NCBI GenBank assembly: GCA_963830715.1
Contig: CAWHNS010000002.1
Location: 217,482-281,481, forward strand
Direction of reading: 5' to 3'
From: an uncultured delta proteobacterium
Lineage (GTDB): Bacteria; Desulfobacterota; Binatia; Binatales; Binataceae
DNA: 64,000 nt
Positions 469 to 62,318 of this stretch are shown here, piece after piece; within the stretch, counting starts at the first letter, position 1, and each line of letters opens with the position of its first letter. The notes beneath the pieces are model-generated. The model did no database searches. It was not told the origin of the DNA and saw only the letters and a list, made by a program, of their open reading frames with translations. Both the position numbers and the translations under genes were made by a program.

Positions 469-544
469 GGGCCCATAGCTCAGCCCGGTTCAGAGCTGCC
501 GGCTCATAACCGGCTGGTCCCAGGTTCAAATCCTGGTGGGCCCA
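469..544 (+). tRNA. tRNA-Met (anticodon CAT); could alternatively be a lysidine-type tRNA-Ile2
   Basis: Cloverleaf by eye. Acceptor GGGCCCA/TGGGCCC. TAGCTCAG D-arm. Anticodon stem GCCGG/CCGGC with loop CTCATAA. T-arm CCAGG-TTCAAAT-CCTGG. Discriminator A. CCA not encoded. Confidence 0.9.
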
Positions 545-1428: not shown

Positions 1429-1768
1429 GCCGGAGTGAATCGGGCGATCGCCCCGCAAGGGGAGGAAAGTCCGGGCTCCACAGGGCAGGGTGGCCGCTAA
1501 CGACGGCGCGAAGCGATTCGCGGAAAGTGGCACAGAAAACAGACCGCCCGCGAGGGCAAGGGTGAAATGGCGGGGTAAGAGCCCACCGGCGCGCGAGTGA
1601 TCGCGCGCGCATGCCAAACCCCACCTGGAGCAAGACCAAATAGGAGGGAGAGTGGCCCGCTCGCAATCCCTCGGGTATGGTCGCTCGAGCCCGCGAGCAA
1701 TCGCGCGGCCCAGAGGAATGATCGCCGCCCGCAAGGGCACAGAACCCGGCTTACAGATTCACTCCGGC
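1429..1768 (+). ncRNA. rnpB: RNase P RNA, bacterial type A
   Basis: Contains the universal GGAGGAAAGTCCGGGCTCCACAGGGCAGGGTG block, GGTAAGAGCCCACC, AGCAAGACCAAATAGG and the 3' ACAGAACCCGGCTTACAG block. The P1 stem is GCCGGAGTGAATC (1429-1441) paired with GATTCACTCCGGC (1756-1768). Confidence 0.93.
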
Positions 1769-1783
1769 ATCAAGACCAGAAAT

Positions 1784-3216: not shown

Positions 3217-4485
3217 GTGTGGATGGTTGAGTATCTGATCGGCGGCGAGCTTCTGCTGACCGCAGTAGTTCTCGTCATCCTTGTCGGGCTCCGCAAGACC
3301 GCGGGCGACGCGGTCGGCGTCGCGCTTGGACCAATCTCGGGGCGTATCGACTCGATGCGCGAAGAGTTGGCGGGCAAATTCGCCGGCGCGACCGCCGACA
3401 TGGCGCAGCGCCTCGAAAAGACCGGAGGCGATCTCCGCCAGCAACTGGCCGATCGGACGCACGCCGAATTTGCGGCGCTTCGCGACTGTCTCGATCGGCA
3501 GCTCGCGGCGGGACGCGAGGAGCAAGCGAAATCGCTCAAGCTGGAGATCGAGGCGCTCACCAACGAAACGCGCAGGAGCCTCGAGGCGATTCGCAACGAG
3601 GTCGATCAGAAGCTGCTCGCGATCGGAAGGGAAGTTCAGGGCAAGCTCGACCAGAATATCCGCGAGGGCTTTCAGCAGTTCGAGAAAGTCCAGCAGCATC
3701 TGCAGGCCGCCGAGGAGCAGCTCAAGAGCGTCAGCATGATCGGCTCCTCGATCAACGATTTGAACAATCTGCTGAAGCTGCCTCATTTGCGCGGCCGATT
3801 TGGTGAGGCAAGCCTCGAGCGGCTGCTGGCCGATTTCCTGCCGGCCTCGATGTACGAGCTTCAGGCGCACGCCGGGCAGAACGGCCAGACCAGGCCGGAC
3901 GCGGTGATCAAGTTTCCGGGCCGCGTCCTTCCGATCGACGCGAAATTCCCGCGCGAGCAGGTCCTGCCTCTGTTCGAGAGCAAGGGCGACAGCGAGCTCG
4001 CCGCGGCGCGCGAGCAGTTTGCGCGCGTGGTCAAGGAGCAGGGGAGACGGATCGCCGGCTATATCCATCCGGAGAACGGCACTACCGACATGGCCCTGAT
4101 GTACCTGCCGAGCGAGACGCTCTACATGGAGACGGTCCTGAATGGCGAGCTGAGCGAATGGCTCAACAAGCTCAAGATTTTCCCGGTCTCGCCGAACACG
4201 CTGATCGTCACGCTGCAGTCGATTGCGATGGTCTTCCGGATGTACGAGTTTGCCAAGAGCTACGAGAAGGCGACCGAGGAGCTGGCGAAGGCGCAGAAGT
4301 CGTTCGCGTTCTTCGAGGGCAAGTTCGAGGACATCGGGAAGTCGCTCGTAAAAGCGCACGAGGCCTTCGGCGTAGCGTCAGGCCATCTGGCGCGCTATCG
4401 GAGCCGGGTCGCGAATTTGAGCGGCGAGCCGGTCCCGGAAATCGAGGGTTCCGCCGAAAACGGTATCGACGACAAGCCGGCGTGA
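3217..4485 (+). CDS. rmuC: DNA recombination protein RmuC
   Basis: N-terminal TM helix, then a long coiled coil, then the conserved RmuC nuclease-like core (RPDAVIKFPGRVLPIDAKFP...MYLPSETLY). Confidence 0.85.
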   Translation: MWMVEYLIGGELLLTAVVLVILVGLRKTAGDAVGVALGPISGRIDSMREELAGKFAGATADMAQRLEKTGGDLRQQLADRTHAEFAALRDCLDRQLAAGREEQAKSLKLEIEALTNETRRSLEAIRNEVDQKLLAIGREVQGKLDQNIREGFQQFEKVQQHLQAAEEQLKSVSMIGSSINDLNNLLKLPHLRGRFGEASLERLLADFLPASMYELQAHAGQNGQTRPDAVIKFPGRVLPIDAKFPREQVLPLFESKGDSELAAAREQFARVVKEQGRRIAGYIHPENGTTDMALMYLPSETLYMETVLNGELSEWLNKLKIFPVSPNTLIVTLQSIAMVFRMYEFAKSYEKATEELAKAQKSFAFFEGKFEDIGKSLVKAHEAFGVASGHLARYRSRVANLSGEPVPEIEGSAENGIDDKPA

Positions 4486-29903: not shown

Positions 29904-30593
29904 ATGATTGACCTTTACTATTGGCCTACGCCGAACGGACACAAGATCACGATCTATCTCGAAGAAACCGGGCTGGAGTACCGCATCGTTCCCGTCAACA
30001 TCCGCGAGGGCGATCAGTTCAAGCCCGAGTTCCTGAAGATCAGTCCGAACAACCGGATGCCCGCGATCGTCGATTCCGACGGACCCGGCGGCAAGCCGAT
30101 TTCGCTGTTCGAGTCGGGCGCGATCCTGCTCTATCTCGGCGAGAAGACCGGCAAGTTGCTGCCCTTGAAATCCGCGCGCGTTATGAAGTCGTGCAGTGGC
30201 TGATGTTCCAGATGGCGAACGTCGGTCCGATGTTCGGCCAGCGCGGCCATTTCCTGCGCGCGGCGCCCGAGAAGATTCCGTACGCGATCGAACGATACAC
30301 CAACGAGTCACGCCGGCTGCTAGACGTGATGGACCGGCGGCTCGGCCAGTCCGCATACCTGGCGGGCGACTACTCGATCGCCGACATCGCAACCTACCCG
30401 TGGGTAGTAGGCACCCGTCGCGAGCCGGAACAACTCGAGTAGCCGTCCCAACTTCAAGCGCTGGCTCGAAGCGATCTCAGAGCGCCCCGCGGTAAAGCGC
30501 GGCGTGGCGGTGATGGCCAACCTGCCGCAACAACCGCTCGACGACAAGGCGCGATCGATACTATACGGCGCCAAACAATTCGAGCGCCGCTGA
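29904..30593 (+). CDS. Nu-class glutathione S-transferase (YfcG-like), two apparent frameshifts (near 30165 and 30440)
   Basis: [21 protein letters not shown]...[12 protein letters not shown]...[17 protein letters not shown] closely matches YfcG. The continuation ([33 protein letters not shown]) and the end ([19 protein letters not shown]...FERR, stop 30591-30593) lie in the other two frames. Confidence 0.8.
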
Positions 30594-30656
30594 CTGGCGA
30601 GCGAGGATAGCGGACCGTCTGGCGAGGCGTTTGACATAGGCAGCGAGGGCGCCGAT

Positions 30657-30953
30657 ATGTCTAAGCTGGGAAAAAGGCCGATCAGGGCCGCCAAGGAAGT
30701 CCACGGAATCGTAAGCGGCGAGATTACGTCCGGTTTTGTCGTGCATGTCCCGGATGATGTTGACGTGAAAGCGCTGAGAAAGCGGCTCGGCTATTCGCAG
30801 TCGCAATTTTCGCGACGCTTCGGGTTCGCCATCGACGCGGTACAGGATTGGGAGCAGCGTCGCAGGACGCCGGACCGAACGGCGCGCGTTTTCTTGACCG
30901 TCATAGCGCGCGAACCGGAGGCGGTCAGCCGCGCGCTGGGGCGATCACACTGA
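30657..30953 (+). CDS. XRE-type HTH protein, COG2944-like (antitoxin-like), no partner toxin seen
   Basis: VKALRKRLGYSQSQFSRRFGFAIDAVQDWEQRRRTPDRTARVFL resembles the HTH of HigA/YiaG-like antitoxins. No small toxin ORF is adjacent. Confidence 0.55.
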   Translation: MSKLGKRPIRAAKEVHGIVSGEITSGFVVHVPDDVDVKALRKRLGYSQSQFSRRFGFAIDAVQDWEQRRRTPDRTARVFLTVIAREPEAVSRALGRSH

Positions 30954-31070
30954 AGAATCGCCTCCCACAACGCGAGCAGAGAGACCGTCTGGCGACCGCC
31001 GTCAGTCCAATATAAAACGATCGCAAGCGCCCCCTTAGCTCAGATGGATAGAGCACAGGATTCCTAATCC
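30952..31070. repeat. direct repeat, left copy (tRNA-Arg upstream flank plus tRNA 5' half)
   Basis: Matches 34416-34533 except at cctcccacaacg versus cctccgcaacg. Confidence 0.9.
31029..31070 (+). pseudogene. truncated tRNA-Arg(CCT) fragment (positions 1 to about 42 only)
   Basis: gcccccttagctcagatggatagagcacaggattcctaatcc is identical to the 5' part of the intact gene at 34492. It then diverges (attacgg...), with no T-arm or 3' acceptor strand. Confidence 0.85.
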
Positions 31071-31338
31071 ATTACGGAACGTAGGGATTTCGTGCCAACG
31101 GGGCGTTATCGAGGAAAATCGGGGCTATTCTGGATCGATAGCGCCCCGTCCCGACCCGTCAAAACCGATAGCGGTCAAGAGTTTGGTGCCAAGTCGGTGC
31201 CAGTTTTTTGGGAGGCGCGCGGCGCTCATCGCCTGGGATCGGCGGCTCCGCGAGATTCTGAGGCAAGCCCGCGCCCAAGGTGATCGAGCTTCACCCGACC
31301 GTCGCGGCTTGAAAACGCACGCCGCAAAATCCGTGGTT

Positions 31339-31806
31339 CTAGGGCTGCACGCTGAAAGTCCCGTGAACCGTGATGATATTGGTTTTGGAAGTCGCGATCG
31401 TTCCGGTAACTCGGCCCTCGAATGAAGGGCCGCCCGGAGTAAAAACTAGATCTAAGCCGCCGATATAACCGGTTCCGCATTGGAGTCCCATGGCCACGCC
31501 GACCAGATCTTGTCCGTCTTCCTCTAGAATCTCCGAATAGATCGGCAGGCAGCCGCCCACTTCGACCCCCTCGTCCGCGCCTTCAAGTATTTGGATACTA
31601 GTTTTGTGGCCCGACTTGATCAGTGTCCCCTCTAGCAAGGTGCAATAGCACTGGCCGGAGGCGCAGTACGAATCAAAACCGTCGTCGCAGGTTCCGTTGT
31701 TGAAAAGCCCCGATGCGCTGAATGAGCCGGTGACGACTCCCGCCCGCGCGGGAATGGCGGCCAGCAGTACCGTGATCAGGAAAAGCGGAAGTGTTTTGAT
31801 CGTCAT
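31339..31806 (-). CDS. hypothetical secreted protein (Cys/Gly-rich)
   Basis: Signal peptide MTIKTLPLFLITVLLAAIPARA. No recognised family. Lies in the AT-richer island. Confidence 0.5.
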   Translation of the reverse strand: MTIKTLPLFLITVLLAAIPARAGVVTGSFSASGLFNNGTCDDGFDSYCASGQCYCTLLEGTLIKSGHKTSIQILEGADEGVEVGGCLPIYSEILEEDGQDLVGVAMGLQCGTGYIGGLDLVFTPGGPSFEGRVTGTIATSKTNIITVHGTFSVQP

Positions 31807-31858
31807 TTTGAACTCTCCTTATTGCGCGGCCCGTCATCTTACTCGTTGGTCAATCTTC

Positions 31859-32477
31859 TCAAGCAACAGGGCGCTGGGCTTTCTTACATTCCTTCCGGGA
31901 GCAAAATATGTCGTGAGCATTGTCATAAATCGGAACATCCTGATCTTTGTGAGCAGCGTCCATTGCCGCTTTGACCACCGCCAAGCCGATGCGCGGAACA
32001 TTCTGATCCTTGTGGGCCGCGTCCATCGTATTCAGCCAGCGGGTCTTTACCCATACGAGAAGCAATCGGTAACGAGAAGCCTGCTCGCCAGGATAGAGGA
32101 GCGTCAGATCAACAACACAACTAACCTGAGCAACCGGAATCGCAACCTCGTCCTGCGTTGATTGAGCGCCGCAATCGCAACCGCCCTTATCCTGAGCGGC
32201 GCAAGTTACCCCATTAGGTGCGCAGCCAAGGAAAAACATAGCGACGCCATACAGCGTGCCACGGCTCGCGACGCCGGGCGGGCAAGGATCGATCAAAATG
32301 CAGCTATGTGTTTTGGCGTTCGGCAATTCCGATAGTTCGGTAACAAATTTCATTCAAGGCTGCTCCGTCGCTATGAGTTTGCATTTCTCGACTTTCGTCA
32401 AAGGGCGAACCGCCCGCGAGGGCCGGGGAGCCCGCGAACAGGAGCGCGAGCGCCGCCACGATCCCGCGCCGGTTTCA
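31859..32477 (-). CDS. hypothetical secreted Cys-rich protein with internal MDAAHKDQxVP duplication (reading frame broken twice near 32355 and 32460)
   Basis: The ATG at 32477 overlaps the stop of the upstream gene (ATGA). The signal-like MKPAR/GIVAALALLFAGSPALAGG needs one base skipped, and the body is ORF 31859..32353. Which parts are real coding sequence is uncertain. Confidence 0.35.
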
Positions 32478-32858
32478 TTGTCCTATCTTTTCGATACATC
32501 GCTGAAAAACTTGCTCTGCTAGGTATTCTCCGGGTAGCGAACGAAACGCGTACACTTCAGCAACGACCCTAAGCTCGTCGGCTTCAATCTGATTTTTTTC
32601 AGCCTGCGAGAGGGGCTGGTATTTCTGCTCGCGCTGGTGTCTTTCCGCGCCATCATGGATTAAGGTTATCCACTCAGATTCCGGCATGCCGTCATTCCGG
32701 GTCTTCGCCGCATATAGGACAAGGGCTCTCTCAGCTTTGCATTGCGAGATTCCCGACGCGATTACATCGGCATCCAGATCGGACTCCTGCGCCCGCGCCG
32801 GACCCGCGAGCAGCAGCCCCACAAGAAAAACCGGCCACACTTTGAGTACCATGAACAT
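32475..32858 (-). CDS. small secreted protein, paralog 1 of island cassette
   Basis: The AGGAGA RBS and M(F)MVLKVWPVFLVGLLLAGPARAQESDL signal peptide are identical to the gene at 33784..34134. Both end in FRSLPGEYLAEQxFQRCIEKxGQ. The ORF-track N-terminal extension is unlikely. Confidence 0.55.
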   Translation of the reverse strand: MFMVLKVWPVFLVGLLLAGPARAQESDLDADVIASGISQCKAERALVLYAAKTRNDGMPESEWITLIHDGAERHQREQKYQPLSQAEKNQIEADELRVVAEVYAFRSLPGEYLAEQVFQRCIEKIGQ

Positions 32859-32976
32859 ACTCTCCTGATAGACGTGTTCCACGTCTGTCTGTAGCATCAC
32901 CCTGCCACGGAAAACGAGGCAAGCCCCCGTTCGGAGCAGCCGAGTCCGCCGCGCCCGCGTAGCTGCGGGGCGGAAG
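32776..32976. repeat. 201-nt direct repeat, copy 1 (5' region plus signal peptide of small secreted protein gene)
   Basis: Differs from 34052-34251 by one single-base indel and one substitution (hand alignment). Confidence 0.9.
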
Positions 32977-33167
32977 GGGATGCGAGGGAGCGGCGATGAG
33001 AGGCGGCAAAGCACAAATCCCTTTCATAGATCGGAATGTCCCTTGAAGCGGGTTCTCGCTTTTTACGGCGCGGGTTCGATTCGCCAGGACAGCCGCTCTA
33101 CGGTCCGATAAGGCTCCGACCGGGGTGCCTGCGCAGAAGACCGCTTCGATGGTCAATCGACAGATTC

Positions 33168-33787
33168 TCACTTGCCCAAGTTCTCGGCCATGGTGGTAGC
33201 ATAGTCACAGTCAAACCAGTCGCGCGCGATGCAACGTTGGGCGGCCTTAAGTGGCAGATCATATTCGCAGACGAGTTGATGTAGCCGGTTTTCGAGGCCG
33301 TCCTTTACTCGCGCGTCACTCCAGAATTGCGGCCAAAGGTTGCGTGGATCATTTGATCCACCTAGTTCTAACGGAATCAAATGATCAAGTTCGCAGCAGG
33401 TATCGTCGGCCCCCTTTGGCAATAACACCGGGCCGGGTTTGCGGTTGTATTCGGCAAAAATTCTCTTCCGTATGTCATCGGGTACTTGGCGCTGGCGCTT
33501 GGCCCATCCGACTGAACAGACATCGGCTTTCGTTATTCCCGGAATCGAATCTCCCGGTGTCAGATACGAATTTGGCTCGGTTTGCTCTCTTTCCATTTCG
33601 TTCAGCGCGATGGCTTCGGTCGTGGTTCCCGATGACCAACCTACTAGGTCGGGGTCGTGATATGATCCAGTTGCGATGGCCTCGATCTTCGCGATGGTAA
33701 GCGCCACATGGCTCCTCACGTCCTGCGCGCGCGCCGAGGAACCGCGAGCAGGACCGCGAGGACTGCTGCCGTGATTCCCGGTTTCAT
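33168..33787 (-). CDS. secreted HNH-motif nuclease-like protein (signal peptide separated by an apparent -1 frameshift near 33730)
   Basis: CCELDHLIPLELGGSNDPRNLWPQ...KDGLENRLHQLVC is the HNH (His-Me finger) pattern seen in secreted and lipoprotein HNH proteins. MKPGITAAVLAVLLAVPRRARA starts at the ATG at 33787, which overlaps the upstream stop (ATGA). Confidence 0.65.
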
Positions 33788-34134
33788 TGCCCTACCTTTT
33801 CGATACATCGCTGAAAATCCTGCTCTGCTAGATATTCTCCGGGTAGCGAACGAAACCCGTACACTTCAGCGAGGAGCTTAAGGTACGAGGCTTCTTCCTG
33901 ATTTTTGAAAGCTTGCGAGTAGGGTTCCTTTTCCACTGTATCGTGCATAATGTTTATAAACTTAGATTCGGGGGCACCCCGATCACGATTCTTCGCAATC
34001 GCTAGGACTAAGGATCTGTCGGATTTGCATCCCGAGAGTTGCACCGCGATTAGATCGGACTCCTGCGCCCGCGCCGGACCCGCGAGCAGCAGCCCCACAA
34101 GAAAAACCGGCCACACTTTGAGTACCATGAACAT
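33784..34134 (-). CDS. small secreted protein, paralog 2 of island cassette
   Basis: Same signal peptide and C-terminal motif as 32475..32858, with a strongly diverged central 70 aa. Confidence 0.55.
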   Translation of the reverse strand: MFMVLKVWPVFLVGLLLAGPARAQESDLIAVQLSGCKSDRSLVLAIAKNRDRGAPESKFINIMHDTVEKEPYSQAFKNQEEASYLKLLAEVYGFRSLPGEYLAEQDFQRCIEKVGQ

Positions 34135-34415: not shown

Positions 34416-34533
34416 GAAGAATCGCCTCCGCAACGCGAGCAGAGAGACCGTCTGGCGACCGCCGTCAGTCCAATATAAAACGATCGCAAGCGCCCCCTTA
34501 GCTCAGATGGATAGAGCACAGGATTCCTAATCC
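34416..34533. repeat. direct repeat, right copy (tRNA-Arg upstream flank plus 5' half)
   Basis: See 30952-31070. Confidence 0.9.
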
Positions 34534-34568
34534 TGGGGCCGTGGGTTCGAATCCCGCAGGGGGCGCCA
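34492..34568 (+). tRNA. tRNA-Arg (anticodon CCT), CCA encoded
   Basis: Acceptor GCCCCCT/AGGGGGC. TAGCTCAGATGGATAGAGC D-arm. Anticodon stem CAGGA/TCCTG with loop TTCCTAA. T-arm GTGGG-TTCGAAT-CCCGC. Discriminator G followed by CCA. Confidence 0.92.
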
Positions 34569-42658: not shown

Positions 42659-44935
42659 CTAATTGGCCCGCGGAGTAGGTGTCGCCTTCGGGGTGGGTGT
42701 TGGAGCGGGTGGCGGCACTGTTCCGGCCAATACCACTGCCAGCGGGTCTGCGGTCGCATTGTTGGAGATCGTCAGCACGCCGCTGTCCTTGCCCACCCGG
42801 TCCGGCGCGAAAGTGACAGCGATCGTGCAACTCCAGTGCGCCGCGAGCGTCGCGCCGCAGGCGCTCTTCTCGGTGAAGGGGCCGCTTACGCTGATGCCGC
42901 TTATTTTCAGCGCCACGTTCTGCCTGTTGACCAGCGTCACCGTTTGCGATCCGCTCACCGTCGCAGAGGTCCGCGCGGCGAACGACAGCGCACCGGGCAC
43001 CGCATAAACTTCCGCTGCCGGCGGAGACCCAACTCCGGTCAGCGCCACCGACTGCGGATGATGTATCGGATCGCCGGCGTTATCGGAGACCGCCAAGGTT
43101 GCGTTCTGCATTCCTACGCTGGTCGGCGAAAACACCACGTTGATCTGGCAGCTCTTTTTGGCCGCGACTGTACCGAAGCAGTTGTCGGTCTCGGAAAACG
43201 CTTCGCTGCTGGTGAATACGCCCGCCACTTGCAAGGGAGTTTTCGAGGTGTTGGTGACGGTCACCTGCTGAGGCGCGGTAACTCCGCCCATAGAGTGCGA
43301 GCCGAAGGCGACCCGGGCCGGTGCCAGCGCTGCGATCGGGGTGGGCAGCGCCGTCGGCGGCGGGGGCGGGCCCGGAGCCGGCGGCGGGCCGATCACCGGC
43401 TGCAATTCGTAGGCGCCGATGTCGCAGTCGGTTTCTGTGGGAGCCGGGCGCGGATCGCCGCGCTGGTCAACGTGAATCGGGCAGTCCGCAGGCGGGACTG
43501 CAAGGTAGGCCGGGCTGTTCGACCCGATCGCCTCAGTCTCGGTGGGTCCGCCATTATTGGCCAGTGGGCCCAGCAGCGGGTTGACGCCGTCTCCTATAGT
43601 CTTGCCATTGGCGCCTGTGATGGTGCCGAAGCTGCACGAGCCGTCATCGTCGATATTGTAGCCGCCATTGGTGACCGCGCCCCCGCTGAATCCGCAGTCC
43701 CCGCCCACTCCGCCACCTTCCAGGTTGCTCGACAGGATGTTCAGAGTGGAGGTGAGGGCACCGGCGCCGGACCTGAATAAACCGCCGCCGCCGCCAAAGC
43801 CACTGGCCGTATTGCCCGATATGGTGCAGAAGGTGACGTTAAGCGTGTTGGAACTGCCGATGGCGGCGCCGGCAGAGGCCGTGTTGCCCGTGAAAGTGCT
43901 GTTGGTGATCGAACCGGTGCCGTAGACAGCGCCGGCGTCACCGCTACCGGCGCTGTTGCTCACGAATGTGGAGCCGCTGATCGTCAGAGAATTCAGCAGG
44001 CCGCCGCCTTCGACGGCGCCCGCAAACCCGGCGCTATTGGAAGTGAACGTACTGTTCGTGACAGTTGTCGAGGTTACCGCGGCGCCATTGTTGTTGGCGA
44101 AGATAGCACCGCCGGCGCCCGCATTGTTGGACGTGAAGCTGCTGTTGCTGACGGTCAGCGTGCCTACGTCGAGCGCGATTGCGCCGCCGCTGAGAAAGCC
44201 GCCAGTGCCTCCGGCGCTGTTGGACGAAAAGCTGCTGCCGGTGACGTTTGCCGTTCCCGAGGCAACCAGGATCGCGCCGCCACCTATAAGGTTGCCGAAC
44301 GAGCATGCGTTCATAACCGTATTGCTCGTGAAGGTGCTGTTGGTGACGTCCAGACTGCCGCTGTTGCCCGACACGATCGCGCCGCCGGCCTGGCAGCCGA
44401 AGTTGCCTGTGAAGGCACAGGCGTTTACGTTCAGCGTGCCGCCGCTATTCGAGATCGCGCCGCCCTGAAACTCGGTGCTGCCGTTTTCGATCGTTATGTT
44501 ATTCAGATTGAGCGTCCCGGTATTGCCCATTACCTGGTTAGAGCCCCCGCCGTTCAGCGTAATGTTCGCCCCGTCGATCGTCAGAGTGTTCGCGACGGTG
44601 GGAAGAGTGCTCGCCACGTTAATCGTTCCGGTGACAGTGAAGGTGATCGTGTCGGTCCCGCTCCCGGCTATGCATCCGTTCACCGCGGCCAAGGTATTGG
44701 CTGCGTTGATCGCATCGCGCAGCCCGCAAAGAGAGGCAGACGAATTTGGATCGTTGAGCGTATTGACGACCAGCGGCGATGCGAATGCGCGCGGCGCCCA
44801 TGCCAACGCCAACCCGGCGAACACAAAAAGGAGGAAAAGCCGCCTCGATGCGCTCGCTCGCGCATCAGCCGCGGGTGATCGAAGTCGCTTGAATCCCCTG
44901 CCTGCGATCGAAATCGCGTTGTGCCCCTGTGTCAC
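42659..44935 (-). CDS. large secreted protein: parallel beta-helix (choice-of-anchor-Q/Pmp-like GGAI repeats) plus two C-terminal HYDIN/ASH-type domains
   Basis: Signal peptide ...LFLLFVFAGLALAWAPRAFA. CGLRDAINAANT...DTITF N-terminal motif. Many NS.F..N.A..GGAI repeats. The C-terminal 230 aa are homologous to 37882..40887. Confidence 0.75.
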   Translation of the reverse strand: MTQGHNAISIAGRGFKRLRSPAADARASASRRLFLLFVFAGLALAWAPRAFASPLVVNTLNDPNSSASLCGLRDAINAANTLAAVNGCIAGSGTDTITFTVTGTINVASTLPTVANTLTIDGANITLNGGGSNQVMGNTGTLNLNNITIENGSTEFQGGAISNSGGTLNVNACAFTGNFGCQAGGAIVSGNSGSLDVTNSTFTSNTVMNACSFGNLIGGGAILVASGTANVTGSSFSSNSAGGTGGFLSGGAIALDVGTLTVSNSSFTSNNAGAGGAIFANNNGAAVTSTTVTNSTFTSNSAGFAGAVEGGGLLNSLTISGSTFVSNSAGSGDAGAVYGTGSITNSTFTGNTASAGAAIGSSNTLNVTFCTISGNTASGFGGGGGLFRSGAGALTSTLNILSSNLEGGGVGGDCGFSGGAVTNGGYNIDDDGSCSFGTITGANGKTIGDGVNPLLGPLANNGGPTETEAIGSNSPAYLAVPPADCPIHVDQRGDPRPAPTETDCDIGAYELQPVIGPPPAPGPPPPPTALPTPIAALAPARVAFGSHSMGGVTAPQQVTVTNTSKTPLQVAGVFTSSEAFSETDNCFGTVAAKKSCQINVVFSPTSVGMQNATLAVSDNAGDPIHHPQSVALTGVGSPPAAEVYAVPGALSFAARTSATVSGSQTVTLVNRQNVALKISGISVSGPFTEKSACGATLAAHWSCTIAVTFAPDRVGKDSGVLTISNNATADPLAVVLAGTVPPPAPTPTPKATPTPRAN

Positions 44936-45111: not shown

Positions 45112-46174
45112 TCAGTACATCGGGGCGAGCGTGACGATCGCGCCGGAGCCGGGCTTGCCGTGCGCGGCCGGATCGCACAACACCATCGTCTTGCCGACGA
45201 ACTTCAGGCAGGTCGGATCGGTCAGGCCGCTGGCATACTCGCGGGCCATCCCTTTGAACAGCCGGTAAACCCGCCCGTCGTGCTCGCCGTTGTTCTGCGA
45301 GGCCAATTTTCCCTCATCCGCAACGAACAGGACGCCGGCATGGCTGCCGAAGCCGTCGGGCGCGAATCCGAACCCGGTCGGCCGGACCAGACCGACCAGG
45401 TAGATGTTGTCGCTCATCTTGCCGGCGCTATCGATGATAGCGAGCCGCCCGACCTTCGGTGCGGCCTCCATTTTGGGCCGGATCGACGCGAGCATCACGT
45501 TGGCCGCTTTCGCGTCGGTCGCGGATGTAAACCCGATGTTGTTGATCTCCCACGGGATCGGCTTGTCGTAGGTTCCGAACGCGCGCGCCTTGCCGCTCGA
45601 ATCGATTGCATAGATCGTCGCGTTGCCGTTGGTGACCGCGTACAGCTTGCCGGCATACGGACTCCCGGGCGCCCCGAACTCGAGGTCGCGGCATTCGGTG
45701 GCCTTTCCCCCATTGAGGCTTCCCGCCGCCGGCAGCCTGGCGAAGACAGAGAGCGCGCCCGACTTGTTCGACTCGATCCACTGCGCACGGCGCCTTCAGG
45801 TCTCCGCCTTCCGGCGCCAGCACGAATACCTGGCCGGCGTACGATCCGAATCCGTCCGGTGCGATCGCCACGCCGGCGGGATTCTTGATTTTGCCGGACA
45901 GGGTTGCCGCGCCTCCGGCGAGCGGCACGGACATGATCGCTCCGGCCGCGGAGTCCGACACCACGACCTTGTCGCCGTCGCCCTGCGCATAGACCGGAGC
46001 CTGAAGGCCCTTGATCTTCAGGGGCCCCATCTCGAAGCCGAAGTCCTCGCAGTTATAGCCCTTGGCTTCGCCCTGAGCGCGCGCCTGCGGCGCGAGCGCC
46101 GCCAGGATCAGCGCGGCCATCAACGGCCCGGCCATAGATCCGATCCGCCTATTTCTTTTTTCCCGCAAGTTCAT
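45112..46174 (-). CDS. hypothetical secreted beta-propeller-like protein (apparent +1 frameshift near 45788)
   Basis: The N-terminal part with its signal peptide (MAGPLMAALILAALAPQARA) is in ORF 45428..46261. The remainder reads through AQWIESNKSGALSVFARLP...NVMLASIRPK into ORF 45112..45498. GFGxAPDGFGSxAG motifs repeat. Confidence 0.5.
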
Positions 46175-46364
46175 CCAGCGCCTCGTTGACGAAGTATTTC
46201 TGGTCCGGATCGCGATCGTCGAGTTCGGCCTTGCGGCGCGACAGCCAGTCGGCGATCGCAATTGTCCCCGCCTCGGACGTATCGCTTATTCCAAGCTGAT
46301 CCGCAACCCTGCCGAGCAGGTCGAACAGCTCGTCCGGAAGGTCGATCTCGATTCGCCTGGCCAA
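46149..46364 (-). CDS. hypothetical small protein
   Basis: A 71-aa ORF with no recognised family. Confidence 0.3.
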   Translation of the reverse strand: MARRIEIDLPDELFDLLGRVADQLGISDTSEAGTIAIADWLSRRKAELDDRDPDQKYFVNEALDELAGKKK

Positions 46365-46395
46365 GACAGGATTGCGAGGTCGCGCGCGCCCGGAA

Positions 46396-46875
46396 TTACC
46401 GGCTCACCGATTCCGTGCGCATCCCGGCGTCCTTCCATCCCTCGACCCCGTCCGCCATCACGCTCACGTCCGTGTAGCCGGCCTTGACCGCCCGCCGGGC
46501 GGCTGCATGGGAGGCCATTCAATGGAGGTTGTGGCAGTAGAAGACCAGCTTCGCGCTCTTGTCCGGCGGCAACTCAGTGGCGACATCGTAATTGGATGAC
46601 GCGAGAAGCCGCGCGCCGGGAATGATGCCCGTGGACTCGCGGACATCGGTCGGGTTGGCGTCGAAGATGTGGACCTTCGCGTCCGAATTGTTCATCAAGC
46701 GCGCGAGGTCCTGAACGTGGATGATCTGGAAGTTGTCCGCTTCCGGGTTGCCGAGGATCGATTGGAGATCCAGCGCGGACGCGGAGCCTGCGAGAAGAAA
46801 CAGAGCCGTCCCGAGCGCGACTACAGCCAAGGTGGATCGAGATGCTCTCTTCATTGCGGAAATTCTATCGCGCAC
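46396..46875 (-). CDS. periplasmic rhodanese-domain protein with in-frame TGA (46519-46521) at a Cys-equivalent position; selenoprotein candidate or pseudogene
   Basis: The signal peptide and rhodanese N-half are in ORF 46519..46875, ending FYCHNLH-TGA. The same frame continues directly as MASHAAARRAVKAGYTDVSVMADGVEGWKDAGMRTESVSR to the TAA at 46396-46398. Together these form a complete rhodanese fold. Confidence 0.6.
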
Positions 46876-46948: not shown

Positions 46949-48061
46949 CTAGACTCCCAGCCGATACAGTTCCGCGACGTTGTCGTGGAGAATCAGGTCG
47001 CGTTCCTGCTCCGACAGCCCGGCGGTGTGCTTCTTCAATATGTCCTGCGACCACGGCCAGGTCGAGTCGCTGTGCGGAAAATCATTCGCCCACATCAGGC
47101 GGTGGATGTTGCACATGTCCTTCATCTGGAATGCGACCCAGTCGTCCTGGAAGGTGGTGTAGACATTCTCGCGGAAGTACTCGCTCGGCATCTTCGAGAG
47201 CGTCCCGGCCGGCAGCCAGTAGCGATGGCGGTCGTAGGCGTGATCCATCCGGTACATGTAATGCGGCACCCATCCGGCGTCGGCTTCGACGCATACCACC
47301 TTCAGTTTCGGATGGCGCTCGAAGACGCCGCCCAGCACGAAGGTCCCGATGATGTCCTGGCATCCGCGGATAATCGACAGGAAGCTGTTGAGCCTCGGAC
47401 CGCGCGTGGGCGTGAGCGCCTCCTCGCGCGTGGTCAGGATATGGAAGCTGAGCGGCATTTCCAGATCGATCGCGGCTTCGTAGAACGGATCGTAGATGGC
47501 GCTGTCGTAGTCCTCGAGCCTGGGATTTCCCGGCATCATCACGCCGCGCAGTCCGAGCTGCTTGATCTTCCGCAGGTCCTCGATTCCTTCCTCGACCGAT
47601 CGCATCGCGGTCTGCCCGGCGCCGATCAGCCGCTCCGGATGCGCGCCGCAGTATTCCGCGATCCACAGGTTGTAGGCGTCGAAGCAGGCCTTCTTGTAAT
47701 CGAAGTCCTTGTGATTGCAGAGCAGCATTCCGACCGTCGGGTAGATTATCTCGGCGAACACGCCGTCGCGGTCCTGGTCGGCGAGCCGCGCCTCGGGGTC
47801 CCATCCGCCGCGATGCATCTCCTCGAACTTCACTCCCATCATCGAGAGTTCCTTGGCCGATTTCCCCGCGGCCGCGACCAGGCCCATCGGGATCGGCCGG
47901 GAGAGCCCGTTAATCACGAAGATGTCGCCGAGCTTGTCGTCGCGGACCATGTGCGGCGCGGTGTCCTTGTATTTGTGATCGATTCGATCGACGTAGGTTC
48001 CCGCCGGCTCGGTGATGTGCGAATCGGCGGAGATGATCGGCTTCGATGTGACCCTGTCCAC
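46949..48061 (-). CDS. amidohydrolase-2 family protein (ACMSD-like metal-dependent hydrolase/decarboxylase)
   Basis: The N-terminal IISADSHITEP and the C-terminal WANDFPHSDSTWP are typical of PF04909 enzymes. Confidence 0.85.
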   Translation of the reverse strand: MDRVTSKPIISADSHITEPAGTYVDRIDHKYKDTAPHMVRDDKLGDIFVINGLSRPIPMGLVAAAGKSAKELSMMGVKFEEMHRGGWDPEARLADQDRDGVFAEIIYPTVGMLLCNHKDFDYKKACFDAYNLWIAEYCGAHPERLIGAGQTAMRSVEEGIEDLRKIKQLGLRGVMMPGNPRLEDYDSAIYDPFYEAAIDLEMPLSFHILTTREEALTPTRGPRLNSFLSIIRGCQDIIGTFVLGGVFERHPKLKVVCVEADAGWVPHYMYRMDHAYDRHRYWLPAGTLSKMPSEYFRENVYTTFQDDWVAFQMKDMCNIHRLMWANDFPHSDSTWPWSQDILKKHTAGLSEQERDLILHDNVAELYRLGV

Positions 48062-57969: not shown

Positions 57970-58374
57970 ATGAAGCCGAAGGTAAGTATTATCACTCTCG
58001 GAGTTACGGACTTCGAGCGATCGATGCGGTTCTATCGCGAGGGGCTCGGATTTCCCACGCACAACTTCAAGCCAGGCGAAGACATCGTCTTCTTCAAGAT
58101 GGAAGGCTCGTGGATTGCGCTCTATCCGCGCGAGAAGCTTGCCGAAGATGCGACCGTCTCGTCCGATGGCTCCGGCTTCACCGGTATTACGCTGGCCCAT
58201 AACGTGAAGACCAAGGCCGAGGTCAACGCGGTGATCGCTCTGGCCGCGAAAGCCGGCGCGCGAATCGTGAAAAAGCCCCAGCAGGTTTTCTGGGGCGGAT
58301 ACTCGGGTTACTTTGCGGATCCCGACGGATATCTCTGGGAAGTCGCCTACAATCCCTTCACCGACTTGACCTGA
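57970..58374 (+). CDS. VOC-family (glyoxalase/bleomycin-resistance fold) protein
   Basis: VSIITLGVTDFERSMRFYREGLGF ... DPDGYLWEVAYNP. Confidence 0.8.
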   Translation: MKPKVSIITLGVTDFERSMRFYREGLGFPTHNFKPGEDIVFFKMEGSWIALYPREKLAEDATVSSDGSGFTGITLAHNVKTKAEVNAVIALAAKAGARIVKKPQQVFWGGYSGYFADPDGYLWEVAYNPFTDLT

Positions 58375-58409
58375 AGCAGGTTCGCTGACTACGAACTGTT
58401 CCGGATCAG

Positions 58410-58841
58410 TCAGACCGTACGTATTCTCAAAACGGGGCATCGTGCGTGGCGCAGGATCTTTTCGGCAGTGCCGCCAGGCAGAAGAGAGTGCAGCCCGGTG
58501 CGGCCCTGCATCGAGATCACAATGAGGTCGATCTTCAGATCGTTCACCAGCTTGTCGATCACCTCGTGAACAACGCCAAAATGAAGTTCGGTGCGGCATT
58601 TGGGATAGAGCTGCATTGCTTCCTTCCCCAGGCGATCGAGGTCGACTGACGCCGCCTCGCCATAACGCTCGAGTAATTCCGCCGGGTCGTACCAGCGCGA
58701 AACCCCATAGGGCAGCGGCTCGACAACGTGAACGAGCACCACTTCGGATTCGTGTTCACGTGCGAGTTCCGTCGCGTATCTTAGCGCCGCCTGCGAGTGC
58801 GCGGAAAAGTCCGTAGGCACCAGAATCCGTTCTATTTTCAT
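58410..58841 (-). CDS. universal stress protein (UspA family)
   Basis: MKIERILVPTDFSAHSQAAL...GSTAEKILRHARCPVL type motifs (here GGTAEKILRHARCPVL). Confidence 0.85.
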   Translation of the reverse strand: MKIERILVPTDFSAHSQAALRYATELAREHESEVVLVHVVEPLPYGVSRWYDPAELLERYGEAASVDLDRLGKEAMQLYPKCRTELHFGVVHEVIDKLVNDLKIDLIVISMQGRTGLHSLLPGGTAEKILRHARCPVLRIRTV

Positions 58842-58877
58842 TCTTTTTTCCCCAGTCAAAGAAAAATTGCTCAGGAT

Positions 58878-59906
58878 TCATTGGAAAAAAGCCATTGAGT
58901 TCAAAACTGCGAAACAGAGAATCAGCAGCAGAGCCCCGGTGCCGAGGCCAATCCTCGCCCACTCGCGGCTTGTGATTCCCAGCCGGCTCGCCGCAACGAT
59001 GTTGGGTATGTTGCCAGTGACAAGCGCCCCTCCGCTAATCAGTAGGCCGAGGAACGCCGCACGCTGCTGATTCATGCTCAGGGACGGTCCTATCTCCACG
59101 GCCGCAAGGGTCGAATTGTTGACAACTGCGGAAATGGTGTTCATCCAAAACAACAGCCCATTTGGAAGGCGATGGATATACGCATCGATCACGGGCCTGA
59201 GACCATCCGAAAGTGCGACAAGTCCGGCGATAAAAACGTACACCTTGCCGGGACGAATCAGCAGGACAAGCCTCCACGGGTCCTTCCCTTCAGCCGCATC
59301 CACGCGCTCGCCGGAAGCGAACGGCAGAAACAAGGTAGGAACCGCGGCGAGAGCGACCCCGACAACAATGAATGGGCCGAGAAGGCGGGCAAGGTACCAG
59401 AAGTCGGCGTGCAGAGAGCGGAGAACGACTGCGATACCGGGCATGCCCAGAGGCGTGAGGCCCGCACCAAAGCCGATAGCGAAACAGGCAAATACCGTCG
59501 CGGCAATTTCCACCCATCGCTCACAACGAAGCAGAGAGATTGCTTCCACGAACACAAGCGCTGACACAACCGGAGTTATGAAGGCCGCGAGAAGGCCAAG
59601 CATGATCGCCAGGCAGAAACAGATAATCCGCGGGTCCAGCACTTGGATTACCCGCCGAAACAGCTGATCGAGATAGTCCCGCAGGAGACGAAAGGCGGCG
59701 CCGAAAATCAGAACGCCCAAAGTGAATGGGAGCGGCTCATTCAAGGCTGCCCAGACGACTGCCAAGCTGAATTGTCCCGTGATACAGGCGCTTAGCACTC
59801 CGACCAGCAGAAAAAAGAGTTCGACGTTCCGCTCAATCGGCCCGACGAAAACGGGTCCGAGCAGAACTACCAGGACGATCAGTGTCGCAAAGGCCAATGT
59901 CGCCAT
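58878..59906 (-). CDS. DUF1646-family integral membrane protein (putative cation transporter)
   Basis: A polytopic membrane protein of about 340 aa. The N-terminus GPIERNVELFFLLVGVLSA resembles DUF1646 as I recall it. The assignment is tentative. Confidence 0.5.
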   Translation of the reverse strand: MATLAFATLIVLVVLLGPVFVGPIERNVELFFLLVGVLSACITGQFSLAVVWAALNEPLPFTLGVLIFGAAFRLLRDYLDQLFRRVIQVLDPRIICFCLAIMLGLLAAFITPVVSALVFVEAISLLRCERWVEIAATVFACFAIGFGAGLTPLGMPGIAVVLRSLHADFWYLARLLGPFIVVGVALAAVPTLFLPFASGERVDAAEGKDPWRLVLLIRPGKVYVFIAGLVALSDGLRPVIDAYIHRLPNGLLFWMNTISAVVNNSTLAAVEIGPSLSMNQQRAAFLGLLISGGALVTGNIPNIVAASRLGITSREWARIGLGTGALLLILCFAVLNSMAFFQ

Positions 59907-60277
59907 CCTGGCGACCTAGTGTATCAACAAACTTTCGCCGAGGCAGAGTACCTGACGGCGCGTTCGGGTCGTCCGGTGATCGAACGTCCATAGGCCGCTA
60001 GTCCGCCACCTCGTACACCTCCGGGCTGGGCCGCCGCCTGCGGCGATCCGGCGCGCGCATTTCAAATTGCCGCAAGGTCCAATTGCAAATCGCGCGCGCC
60101 CGACGGCGACCTTTGACTAAAGGCCAGCATCGGCGGCGCTTCCCGGCGTGGCACGCTTACTGCGTTAGGAACCGGCGAGAGGTCGATAAGATAGCGTGTT
60201 TGCAATCAGCAAATGGTTGCCCCCGCTGAGTCTCGAATCTCATTTCGGATCCGTCTGACTATTGGAGGGTTTCCAAG

Positions 60278-60373
60278 GTGAACCTGGAGATTTGGCTGCC
60301 GGCGATGTTCCTTCTCGGACTAGTGAGCATGGGACTCTGCTACGCGTTCATGATCGCGTGCGAAAAGATTTAA
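60278..60373 (+). CDS. candidate 31-aa hydrophobic peptide upstream of kdpF
   Basis: GGAGGG lies 8 nt upstream of the GTG at 60278. It encodes (M)NLEIWLPAMFLLGLVSMGLCYAFMIACEKI, a single TM helix. Its TAA overlaps the AAGGAG RBS of kdpF. Confidence 0.3.
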   Translation: MNLEIWLPAMFLLGLVSMGLCYAFMIACEKI

Positions 60374-60384
60374 GGAGCTTGAAG

Positions 60385-60465
60385 ATGATTTATTTCACGT
60401 CGGCCGTATCGGCGTTCTTGTTCGTGTACTTGTGGGTCGCGCTCATTCGTCCTGAATGGTTCTAA
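60385..60465 (+). CDS. kdpF: K+-transporting ATPase subunit F
   Basis: The 26-aa MIYFTSAVSAFLFVYLWVALIRPEWF matches the KdpF pattern (...Y L . Y A L . R P E . F). AAGGAG RBS. Directly precedes kdpA. Confidence 0.7.
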   Translation: MIYFTSAVSAFLFVYLWVALIRPEWF

Positions 60466-60501
60466 GCGGCGAACCAGCGCTTCAACAAAGAGGTACAGAC
60501 T

Positions 60502-62318
60502 ATGTGGCTTCTCCCGATTTCAATGCTCGTCTTTACCACGATGCTCGCCATCCCGCTGAGCAAGTATCTGGCGTGGATCATGGACGGCAAATATCATGCG
60601 CCGGCCTTCCTGCGATGGTTTGAGAAACGTCTCGACAGCGGACCGCAGAACTGGAAGCAGTACACGGCCTCGCTGCTGGTTTTCAATACGGTGCTGTTCG
60701 TCTTCGGCTTCGTGGTGCTTTCCCTGCAACCATGGATGCCGCTGAACGGGCTCGGCCGGGGAATGCTCGAACCGACGACCATCTTTCACTCGGTGGTCTC
60801 GTTCATGACGAATACCGACCTGCAGCACTACTCGGGCGATCAACACTTCTCCAATTTCAGCCAGATATTTTTCTGCATTACCAACTTTTTCCTGTCGGCA
60901 TCGATCGGGTTTTGCGGTCTCACCGCCATCATCCGCGCCTTTCGCAGCGAAAAACTGATCGGCAATTTTTTCGTCGATATGTGGCGTGTGTTTGTCTATA
61001 TGTTTTTGCCGGTCGGATTTGTCTTGAGCCTGCTCATGCTTCAGCAGGGCATGCCGATGACGTTCCGGAGTGCCTACCAGGTCAACACGCTCGAGCCGGC
61101 GTCGATGGGCACCGACGACAGGGGCGCGGCCAAGCAACAGACCATCGTTGTGGGACCGCTGGCCGTCTTCGAACCGCTGAAGCAGATCGGGACCAACGGC
61201 GGCGGATTCTTCGGCATGAATTCGGCGCATCCGTTCGAAAATCCGAGCGCCTTCACGAATTTTCTCGAGTGCGTCGCGATGATGCTGTTTCCGTTTTCGC
61301 TGGTGCTGATGTACGGCCGGATGCTCGGCCGGATGCGCCATTCTGTCGTGATTTTCTCCGTCATGATGGTGATGATGGTCGGCACGATCGTCTGGGCTAT
61401 CTACTTCGACACGATGAAGCCCAATCCGGGCCTTACTGCCCATCCTGAGGCCAGAAACTTTTCGATCCCGAGCGCCGGCGCGCCTGGAGGCAAACGCGAC
61501 TTCACGTTGCCGGCCGTCGCCGGGCTGCCGGTCGACCAGCATCTCGGAAACCTCGAGGGCAAGGAGCTGCGCTTCGGCACTTCGGCCGGTGCGACTTTCG
61601 CGGCGATGACGGTTGACGTGACCGACGGCGCAGTCAACTGCGAACACGACAGCCTCAATCCAATCGCGGCGCTCTCACCGATGTGGGGGATGTGGGTGAA
61701 CTGCATCTACGGCGGCAAGGGCGTGGGCATGATCAATATGCTCCTGTTCCTGATCCTGGGCGTTTTCGTCGCGGGGCAGATGGTCGGTCGCACGCCCGAG
61801 TACCTCGGAAAGAAAATCGGCGGACGTGAGATGGCCCTGCTGATGATCGCTCTGCTGGTACATCCAATCATGATTCTGGGCCCAGCGGCCTCTTTGCTGC
61901 GACCAGCTGGGGAATGAAGGCGGAGAGCAATCCGGGTCCGCACGGGTTCTCTCAGATCGTGTACCAGTTCTCATCGGCCTCCGCTAACAACGGCTCGGCG
62001 TTCGACGGTCTCGGCGTCACCTACGGCCTCAACAGCAACCCTAGTCCGGCACCTACCGCGGTCGCGTGGGACATCGCAGCCGGCCTGGTCATAATCATAA
62101 GCCGGTTCCTCCCCATCATTGCGCCGATCGCGATGGCGGCAAGTCTTGGCGCCAAGAAATCGACGCCATTCACCCTGGGCACTCTGCGGGACGACACACC
62201 GACATTTGGCTTCCTCCTGCTCGGGACCGTTCTGATCATCGGGGCTCTGCTGTTCCTTCCTGTAGCCGCGCTTGGGCCAATAGCCGATCACCTGGGTCCC
62301 ATTCCGTTCGGAGGATAA
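60502..62318 (+). CDS. kdpA: K+-transporting ATPase subunit A (apparent -1 frameshift near 61886)
   Basis: The KdpA N-terminal 460 aa are in ORF 60502..61917 (GTNGGGFFGMNSAHPFENP). The C-terminus (GLFAATSWGMKAESNPGPHGFSQIVYQFSSASANNGSAF...) continues in ORF 61914..62318. Confidence 0.9.

Follow-up and report, generated by a model that had tools for sequence, protein, structure and literature searches.

The interval 46854..46393 on the minus strand of a 64,000-nt stretch of DNA, hereafter called the window, very probably holds one intact gene rather than a truncated one, in which an in-frame UGA codes for selenocysteine (Sec) with the aid of a SECIS hairpin; taken as a whole, this is the best explanation of the data. 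Recoding of the UGA is strongly supported by comparison with related genes, and the gene, which encodes an exported single-domain rhodanese, is an unannotated addition to the known rhodanese-like selenoproteins, possibly a new sub-form.

An in-frame UGA in an exported rhodanese gene

An earlier note on this DNA had pointed to an open reading frame that ends in ...KLVFYCHNLH-TGA (46521-46519), and to 40 codons beyond the TGA that continue in the same frame without a shift (MASHAAARRAVKAGYTDVSVMADGVEGWKDAGMRTESVSR, 46518..46396). Both observations hold in the sequence and its translation, and the frame then closes with a TAA at 46395-46393, giving a product of 152 sense codons including Sec112 (Table 1). 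Two start codons can be considered on the minus strand, the ATG at 46854-46852 and an in-frame GTG upstream at 46875, which is the mechanical start of the open reading frame; the ATG is the likely start because homologues begin with MK/MR-x-x. The N-terminus that follows from this choice, MKRASRSTLAVVALGTALFLLAGSASA, has, judged by eye, a basic N-region and a hydrophobic core ahead of an A-x-A cleavage motif, and contains neither a lipobox Cys nor a twin-arginine motif. The homologues have N-termini of the same architecture, and we infer that this part of the protein is a Sec-type signal peptide, the removal of which would leave a mature product of ~125 residues acting in the periplasm. The read-through product matches the Pfam Rhodanese family (PF00581) over residues 48-142 with 44.2 bits (cut-off 22.2), and since this match crosses the TGA, the suggestion that the stretch after the TGA is the missing C-terminal part of the rhodanese fold proved correct.

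Table 1. Features of the selenoprotein gene, in positions of the window
Feature	Position	Strand	Basis
Complete gene, exported single-domain rhodanese selenoprotein	46393..46854	-	Sequence, translation, PF00581 match
Predicted Sec-type signal peptide, residues 1-27 (MKRASRSTLAVVALGTALFLLAGSASA, then LDLQ)	46774..46854	-	Read from sequence
TGC, Cys107, conserved rhodanese active-site Cys closing the central beta-strand LVFYC	46534..46536	-	Invariant in homologues
In-frame TGA, Sec, residue 112, in the motif C107-H-N-L-H-U112-M-A-S	46519..46521	-	Cys/TGA column
40 codons after the Sec codon (MASHAAARRAVKAGYTDVSVMADGVEGWKDAGMRTESVSR), active-site helix and C-terminal strand and helix	46396..46518	-	Conservation, Pfam, model
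SECIS-type mRNA hairpin (5' arm 46503-46497, loop GGC 46496-46494, 3' arm 46493-46487)	46487..46503	-	Folding, comparison

A protein search of 5.8 billion sequences yielded 97 homologues of the window rhodanese. About 45 of them, which come from unrelated metagenomes and genomes, are only 95-133 residues long and all end at the column of the TGA, with ...LVFYC followed by four residues; the database copies that we inspected were all cut at the UGA to this length and, where they bore a name, were recorded as 'hypothetical protein'. The full-length homologues read FYC-xxxx-C-[MT]-A-S-H, with an invariant Cys aligned with the TGA, five residues past the conserved active-site Cys. This agrees with the YC-x4-C-xAS loop that had been given for related periplasmic rhodaneses and with the proposal that the TGA stands where the second Cys would be. 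At E <= 1e-30 the family comprises 335 representatives (50% identity), the best 150 of which all have Cys at this column and none U or X; the names of the members listed are 'rhodanese-like domain-containing protein', 'rhodanese-related sulfurtransferase' and 'hypothetical protein'.

For a comparison at the codon level, 74 loci were fetched from species-representative genomes by means of two C-terminal protein motifs, so that their choice was blind to the codon at the TGA column. Most of them belong to Candidatus Binataceae or Binatus (phylum Binatota), many being long-read soil MAGs, and five Cys forms from Myxococcota were added to the compared set. Long Binatota contigs on which the TGA form is found include CAWBJH010000001.1 (3.66 Mb), CAVOUW010000003.1 (3.27 Mb), CAWJET010000001.1 (3.24 Mb) and CAWHWI010000001.1 (2.01 Mb). 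The alignment with homologues that the earlier note had called for gave a clear result: among the 75 genes in these 74 loci, the column is TGA in 45, as in the window, and TGC or TGT in the other 30, while TAA or TAG occurs in none of the 75. The downstream frame is conserved in every one of these genes, and the codon alignment shows that amino acids after the TGA are conserved, with variation concentrated at third positions. Taken together with the window, the 46 Binatota TGA forms have His before the Sec in 42 cases, where the Cys forms have Gln, Arg or Lys, and their codon after the UGA specifies Met (19) or Thr (25). Sec and Cys forms also stand side by side in single genomes (L008, L009, L019, L040 and L042, and likewise L075 and L350).

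The hairpin downstream of the UGA

Downstream of the UGA, the mRNA can fold into the hairpin CCGCCC-GGC-GGGCGG (46502-46488), which a G.U pair extends to 46503-46487. It then has 7 bp, a 3-nt loop that starts 22 nt after the UGA and a folding energy of -13 kcal/mol, and it overlies codons for A-A-R-R-A. The hairpin had been described before with its loop G residues 23-24 nt past the UGA and an outer GGCC/GGCC pairing, and this description was confirmed. Its spacing had also been said to suit a bacterial SECIS element, and indeed the hairpin lies in every respect within the bSECIS consensus (Zhang and Gladyshev 2005, quoted in PMC13188914), which has an apical loop of 3-9 nt, an upper stem of 4-16 bp, a distance to the UGA of 16-37 nt, a G within the first two bases of the loop (most often G followed by G or U) and a minimum free energy (MFE) of <= -7.5 kcal/mol. 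The 60-nt hairpin region is not exceptionally stable for a sequence this rich in GC (z = -0.42; 60 of 200 shuffled sequences fold as well), and a search of Rfam gave no SECIS family match on the window hairpin. Because the stability of the single sequence is no better than chance, the significance of the hairpin is taken from comparative data only.

These data are distinctive. All 46 TGA forms, the window and its 45 relatives, share the sequence GCC GCC CG[G/U] CGG GCG G over the A-A-R-R-A codons. At the hairpin codons +6, +7, +9 and +10, counted from the UGA, the entropy of the third position is 0.15, 0, 0 and 0 bits in the Sec forms, compared to 1.65, 1.67, 1.68 and 1.10 bits in the Cys forms. 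Codon +8 is only CGG or CGU in the Sec forms (0.89 bits, against 1.70 bits in the Cys forms), and this variation corresponds to the middle base of the loop, G or U, at which the model allows either (PMC13188914). In the neighbouring four-fold codons +2, +13 and +14, third positions vary to a similar degree in Sec forms (1.4-1.8 bits) and Cys forms (1.6-1.8 bits). The synonymous positions of the hairpin are therefore frozen in the TGA forms only, which indicates selection at the level of the RNA. Within the clade of the window there is no covariation, the stem being invariant in the 46 TGA forms. Two Cys forms (L012 and L052) have a nearly intact hairpin and are neighbours of Sec forms in the tree described below, which fits a recent reversion from Sec to Cys.

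An independent second sample came from running the DNA pattern FYC-x4-TGA-x-A-[S/C]-H-x-A-A on a genome collection, in a form that leaves out the Binatota stem codon. This gave 73 matches, where ~1 was expected by chance, and 71 of these are homologues; the matches in Methylobacter and Shewanella are noise. The 71 further TGA forms come from Polyangiaceae, Kofleriaceae, Myxococcaceae and Archangiaceae (Myxococcota), from one Bdellovibrionota chromosome and from three variant Binataceae, and bring the total to 117 (the window, 45 and 71). The 117 genes have 37-85 conserved codons past the UGA, with variation mostly at third positions and no TAA or TAG. Since 61 of the 117 themselves terminate in TGA, recoding of the UGA is local, and a reassignment of UGA in the genetic code is ruled out. 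Outside the 46 Binatota forms, the UGA is mostly followed by a His or Thr codon, and in most Myxococcota forms by His, Thr or Arg.

The hairpins of the 71 additional forms occupy the same position as in the clade of the window, and their stems are different. The stem CCGCCGC-GGUC-GCGGCGG alternates with CCGCUGC-GGUC-GCAGCGG, a change from C-G to U-A in which both substitutions are synonymous and for which one U.G intermediate was found. Other stems are GCCGCG-GGUCG-CGCGGC, GCGCGGCA-GGC-UGUCGCGC, CCGCGC-GGC-GCGCGG and CUGCGC-GGC-GCGCAG, so that compensatory changes, C-G to U-A and C-G to G-C, occur both between and within the classes. The loops of the family are GGC, GUC, GGUC or GGUCG with a spacing of 20-26 nt, and 116 of the 117 Sec forms, in five of the six sequence classes, conform to the bSECIS model (PMC13188914). 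As in known bacterial SECIS elements, of which that of E. coli fdhF is the prototype, these hairpins lie directly 3' of the UGA within the coding region, with a small apical loop opening with G then G/U, an upper stem of 6-8 bp, the spacing given above and an energy below -7.5 kcal/mol. The stems, however, bear no sequence relation to those of the E. coli elements, and the hairpins consist of Ala and Arg codons from the active-site helix. If the mechanism resembles that of characterised bacterial systems, a ribosome stalled at the UGA would receive SelB.GTP.Sec-tRNA(Sec) by way of the hairpin at 46503-46487.

Sec/Cys exchange, insertion machinery and alternative explanations

A neighbour-joining tree places the Cys forms of Myxococcota, Bdellovibrionota and Elusimicrobia outside the Binatota clade; inside this clade, Sec and Cys forms are intermingled, with 6 or more switches between them. 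Cys forms dominate in lineages other than Binatota, and Sec would have arisen from Cys. The simplest reading of the tree is a single gain of Sec in Binatota followed by repeated reversion to Cys, because all Binatota Sec forms share one hairpin.

None of the genes selA, selB, selC and selD was found in the 64,000-nt window, where Rfam identified tRNA-Met, tRNA-Arg and RNase P RNA as the only RNAs and no tRNA-Sec, and neither a selA motif, a selD motif nor tRNA-Sec was present in ~0.55 Mb of related loci. A scan of genomes with a selA motif written in GC-biased codons retrieved at least 120 sel loci, which belong to other phyla, with none from the rhodanese-bearing MAGs among the matches listed; third-position GC in Binatota is too low for this GC-biased pattern. 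In 25 of the 120 listed loci tRNA-Sec adjoined selA, so the scan method works. A search with a SelA from Polyangia found selA together with a Sec-rhodanese in two Archangiaceae assemblies, Archangium sp. JBJMQO01 (loci L310 and L223; contigs of 313 and 231 kb) and JAYVRT01 (L284 and L200, on short contigs). It also showed selA in cultured Archangium, Corallococcus and Pyxidicoccus. Co-occurring machinery, in the form of selA in two MAGs, is thus seen in Myxococcota members of the family and, among the sequences covered, not in Binatota, the lineage of the window. One contig binned as 'Candidatus Binatia' (L282) does carry selA and selB (TIGR00474, 572 bits; TIGR00475, 372 bits), but its SelB is 77-96% identical to the best 120 matches, the named ones of which are mostly Rokubacteria or Methylomirabilota, its GC content is 73%, and its tetranucleotide composition matches Binatota poorly. 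This contig is probably mis-binned and was not counted. Further selenoprotein genes were also looked for: an all-against-all screen of read-through open reading frames was swamped by wrong-frame conservation, and a GC3-based screen of the window gave a single, implausible match at 44466.

The window contig has apparent frameshift-type breaks close to the gene, for example where the overlapping open reading frames 45428-46261 and 45112-45498 share a repeat motif in two frames, so one might regard the TGA as a sequencing or assembly error, or as a recent nonsense mutation in a pseudogene, on an error-rich long-read contig. However, 116 other species-level genomes, which stem from many separate studies and sequencing platforms, have TGA at that column as well. 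This conservation across species excludes an error at the TGA; the earlier note had argued that the TGA is a substitution-type event for which indel errors offer no explanation. As TAA and TAG never occur at the column, purifying selection acts on the codons downstream and the hairpin is maintained, we consider the chance that the gene is an artefact or a pseudogene to be negligible. It is also very improbable that the TGA is a real stop, leaving a 111-residue fragment, with the C-terminal 40 residues made separately from the adjacent ATG of a split gene, or never made. In the window an ATG does directly follow the TGA, and in the public collections that we inspected gene callers end the protein there. 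Usually, however, no start codon is available, since a Thr codon follows the UGA in 25 of the 46 Binatota forms and most Myxococcota forms have His, Thr or Arg there, and the conserved coding sequence leaves no room for a ribosome-binding site. Moreover, both halves are needed for the rhodanese fold and the Pfam match, and a split gene leaves the frozen hairpin unexplained.

Read-through of stop codons can in general be promoted by downstream hairpins, which lends some weight to the idea that read-through of the UGA involves no selenium, with either a near-cognate tRNA inserting Trp, Cys or Arg or the hairpin causing regulated partial termination; the lack of Sec machinery in the window and in the ~0.55 Mb of related loci points the same way. 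Yet UGA and Cys codons are the only states seen at the column, a pattern that marks Sec/Cys exchange, this interconversion has occurred repeatedly in the tree, and the Cys forms lose the constraint on the hairpin. The hairpins also fit the SelB-type model, with G then G/U opening a small apical loop at a spacing of 20-26 nt, and selA and a Sec form are found together in two assemblies. Selenium-free read-through is therefore unlikely, and the insertion of Sec at the UGA is the explanation that we retain.

Active site and relation to known rhodaneses

The AlphaFold model of a Cys homologue that is 68% identical to the window protein (P0002) has a pLDDT of 84.9 overall, rising above 93 in the core. 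Its fold is that of a rhodanese, with a strand at residues 98-102, the active-site Cys at position 103 and a helix from residue 110, and the second Cys, the equivalent of the Sec, lies five residues past the active-site Cys and two before the start of the active-site helix. The best Foldseek matches of this model are single-domain rhodaneses with 18-25% identity, E-values of 1e-4 to 1e-6 and TM-scores of ~0.5-0.6. A sequence alignment to 6mxv shows two extra residues in the active-site loop compared with the classical CxxGxRS. The motif of the family is C-x4-U-x-A-S, and that of the Myxococcota forms C-x4-U-x-A-C, with a further Cys in U-H-A-C-H (a UxxC motif). It appears, therefore, that the classical active-site Cys has been kept and that Sec is placed five residues on, at the end of a lengthened loop.

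The position of this residue in the modelled Cys homologue suggests that Cys107 and Sec112 are a redox pair, which may form a selenenylsulfide. Sec could be the nucleophile that resolves or relays a persulfide or disulfide on the active-site Cys, and the protein would then be a periplasmic sulfane-sulfur or thiol-redox enzyme, and not a plain one-cysteine sulfurtransferase. One-cysteine rhodaneses, such as GlpE (1gmx), YgaP (5hbl), PspE-type proteins and the periplasmic Sud (1qxn), have the same fold with the active-site Cys after the central strand, whereas in the window family the loop contains Cys or Sec as a second redox residue and is two residues longer than CxxGxR[ST].

Rhodanese sulfurtransferases had been cited as a known prokaryotic selenoprotein family, which is correct: a 2026 catalogue (PMC13188914, Table 1) contains five rhodanese-like forms, including UxxS (form 1, WP_010941598.1, Geobacter sulfurreducens), two UxxG forms, CxU (form 3, NF041203) and UxxxxU (form 5, TsoB, NF045694). 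The window family resembles them in its rhodanese domain, in having Sec in or beside the active-site loop, in its Cys homologues, and in the combination of a Cys/Sec pair with a bSECIS prediction. We read the Sec motif of the UxxG forms as the classical C-x-x-G active site with its Cys replaced by Sec, whereas the window family keeps the active-site Cys, has Sec five residues on (C-x4-U) and carries a signal peptide. Its U-M-A-S fits the UxxS of form 1, a comparison by motif alone, and on that footing the family may either extend form 1 or count as a sixth form.

Among the curated NCBIfam models, none reaches its cut-off on the window protein. The best match is TsoB (E = 3.8e-14, residues 27-150 against profile positions 28-159), with 51.7 bits in the N-terminal domain only against a cut-off of 805. 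The two families share the x4 spacing of two redox residues, and the UxxxxU of TsoB probably aligns with the C-x4-U of the window family. TsoB is nevertheless a protein of ~572 residues with a DsbD-like part and Sec at both positions, encoded in an operon of three selenoproteins (PMC13188914), whereas the window protein is a stand-alone domain of 152 residues with one Sec. TIGR03865, the PQQ-dependent catabolism-associated CXXCW motif protein (PQQ_CXXCW), is likewise a rhodanese-like family with a two-Cys motif, and resembles the C-terminal half of the window protein (E = 4e-10, residues 97-150). Its score of 39.8 bits is below the cut-off of 128, its motif is C-x-x-C-W and not C-x4-C/U, the window protein has no CXXCW motif, and no PQQ-dehydrogenase context was seen at the loci examined. 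The CxU model NF041203 (rhodanese_LYCAU) scores 34.3 bits against a cut-off of 115, the motif here being C-x4-U.

We tentatively propose that the family is a sixth, uncatalogued form of rhodanese-like selenoprotein, exported and with the motif C-x4-U-x-A-[S/C], in which Sec resolves the retained Cys, that it is present in at least 117 species of Binatota, Myxococcota and Bdellovibrionota, and that it is maybe the main protein sustaining Sec decoding in Binatota, a largely aerobic, methylotrophic soil phylum. A Sec-containing rhodanese is of specialist interest and unsurprising in kind. The findings point to the use of Sec in Binatota, for which we found no report in the searchable literature, and add a frequent selenoprotein to Myxococcota. 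They also indicate that a widespread periplasmic enzyme is mis-annotated across soil metagenomes, and a model with a Sec exception would mend the annotation of >100 species-level genomes. The family offers a natural Cys/Sec series of one short redox loop, including genomes in which Sec and Cys paralogues lie in tandem, which is a convenient system for learning what selenium contributes to the chemistry of persulfides or disulfides under the oxidising conditions of the periplasm, and it is a clear case of a SECIS element built from the codons of a conserved helix, with a constraint that is visibly lost after reversion from Sec to Cys.

There is no conserved gene neighbourhood at the loci compared, since the neighbours differ between clades, and no pathway or substrate is indicated by them. 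They include genes for Amidohydro_2, an OprB porin and RND efflux, as well as for a putative polysaccharide deacetylase and a putative OPT-family transporter, the last two of which were named by eye from the sequence.

Paired copies and motif variants in the rhodanese family

Five of the loci fetched from other genomes (L008, L009, L019, L040, and L042, one genome each) contain both a Sec form of the rhodanese gene, with the in-frame TGA, and a Cys form, with TGC or TGT at the same column, at most ~600 bp apart. At two further loci, L075 (9446-9871 and 10001-10294) and L350 (8001-8297 and 8573-9007), the Sec form is adjoined by a rhodanese-domain gene. In the Cys forms of L012 (near position 3262) and L052 (near 3295), the hairpin typical of Sec forms is preserved almost whole, as GCCGCCCGGCGGGCA in L012 and as GCCGCCCGGCGGGCC in L052, and both genes neighbour Sec forms in the neighbour-joining tree. 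These two genes look like recent Sec-to-Cys conversions.

The Sec forms of Myxococcota (L197-L269, e.g. L199, L201, and L216) carry the motif C-x4-U-H-A-C-H, and thus have an extra cysteine three residues past the selenocysteine (a UxxC motif), whereas the Binatota forms have a serine at this position. The top-scoring relatives in the profile search (database homologues P0098-P0107) were two-domain proteins of ~245 residues, of which the named members belong to Elusimicrobia, and every sequence inspected in this group was a Cys form.

Selenocysteine insertion machinery in other genomes

A selA-selB operon was found on a 5.4-kb contig (L282, DATLZL010000066.1) binned as 'Candidatus Binatia bacterium SMAG_U13297'. 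However, this placement is probably a binning error, since the contig has a GC content of 73% and its SelB reaches 96% identity to database matches, of which the named ones are mostly from Rokubacteria or Methylomirabilota. Among cultured Myxococcota, selA is encoded by Archangium gephyra SDU49 (L286), Corallococcus sicarius (L276), and Pyxidicoccus caerfyrddinensis (L307), and these species are possible experimental hosts if they also possess a Sec-rhodanese.

Surroundings of the rhodanese gene and composition of the window

Further features of the window are listed in the table below. No tRNA-Sec was found within the 64,000 nt.

Features of the window
Feature	Position	Strand	Score
tRNA-Met(CAU)	469-544	+	
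Bacterial RNase P RNA class A	1432-1769	+	272.7 bits
tRNA-Arg(CCU)	34492-34568	+	
Overlapping ORFs 45428-46261 and 45112-45498, different frames	45112-46261	-	
Perfect 10-bp inverted repeat, arms CCCCCTTCCC ... GGGAAGGGGG, 7-nt loop	46900-46926	-	

The inverted repeat is located between the rhodanese gene and the Amidohydro_2 gene (stop near 46949), has no T-run downstream, and may be a terminator or a repeat element. The two overlapping ORFs gave no match in Pfam; both contain the repeat APDGFGS[YH]AG, and together they look like a single repeat-protein gene whose frame is disrupted, through a long-read indel or because the gene is a pseudogene, by a frameshift. The GC content, ~0.63-0.66 in the rest of the window, is 0.56-0.59 at 30001-34000 and 0.57-0.58 at 58001-62000, and these two low-GC stretches may be acquired segments.
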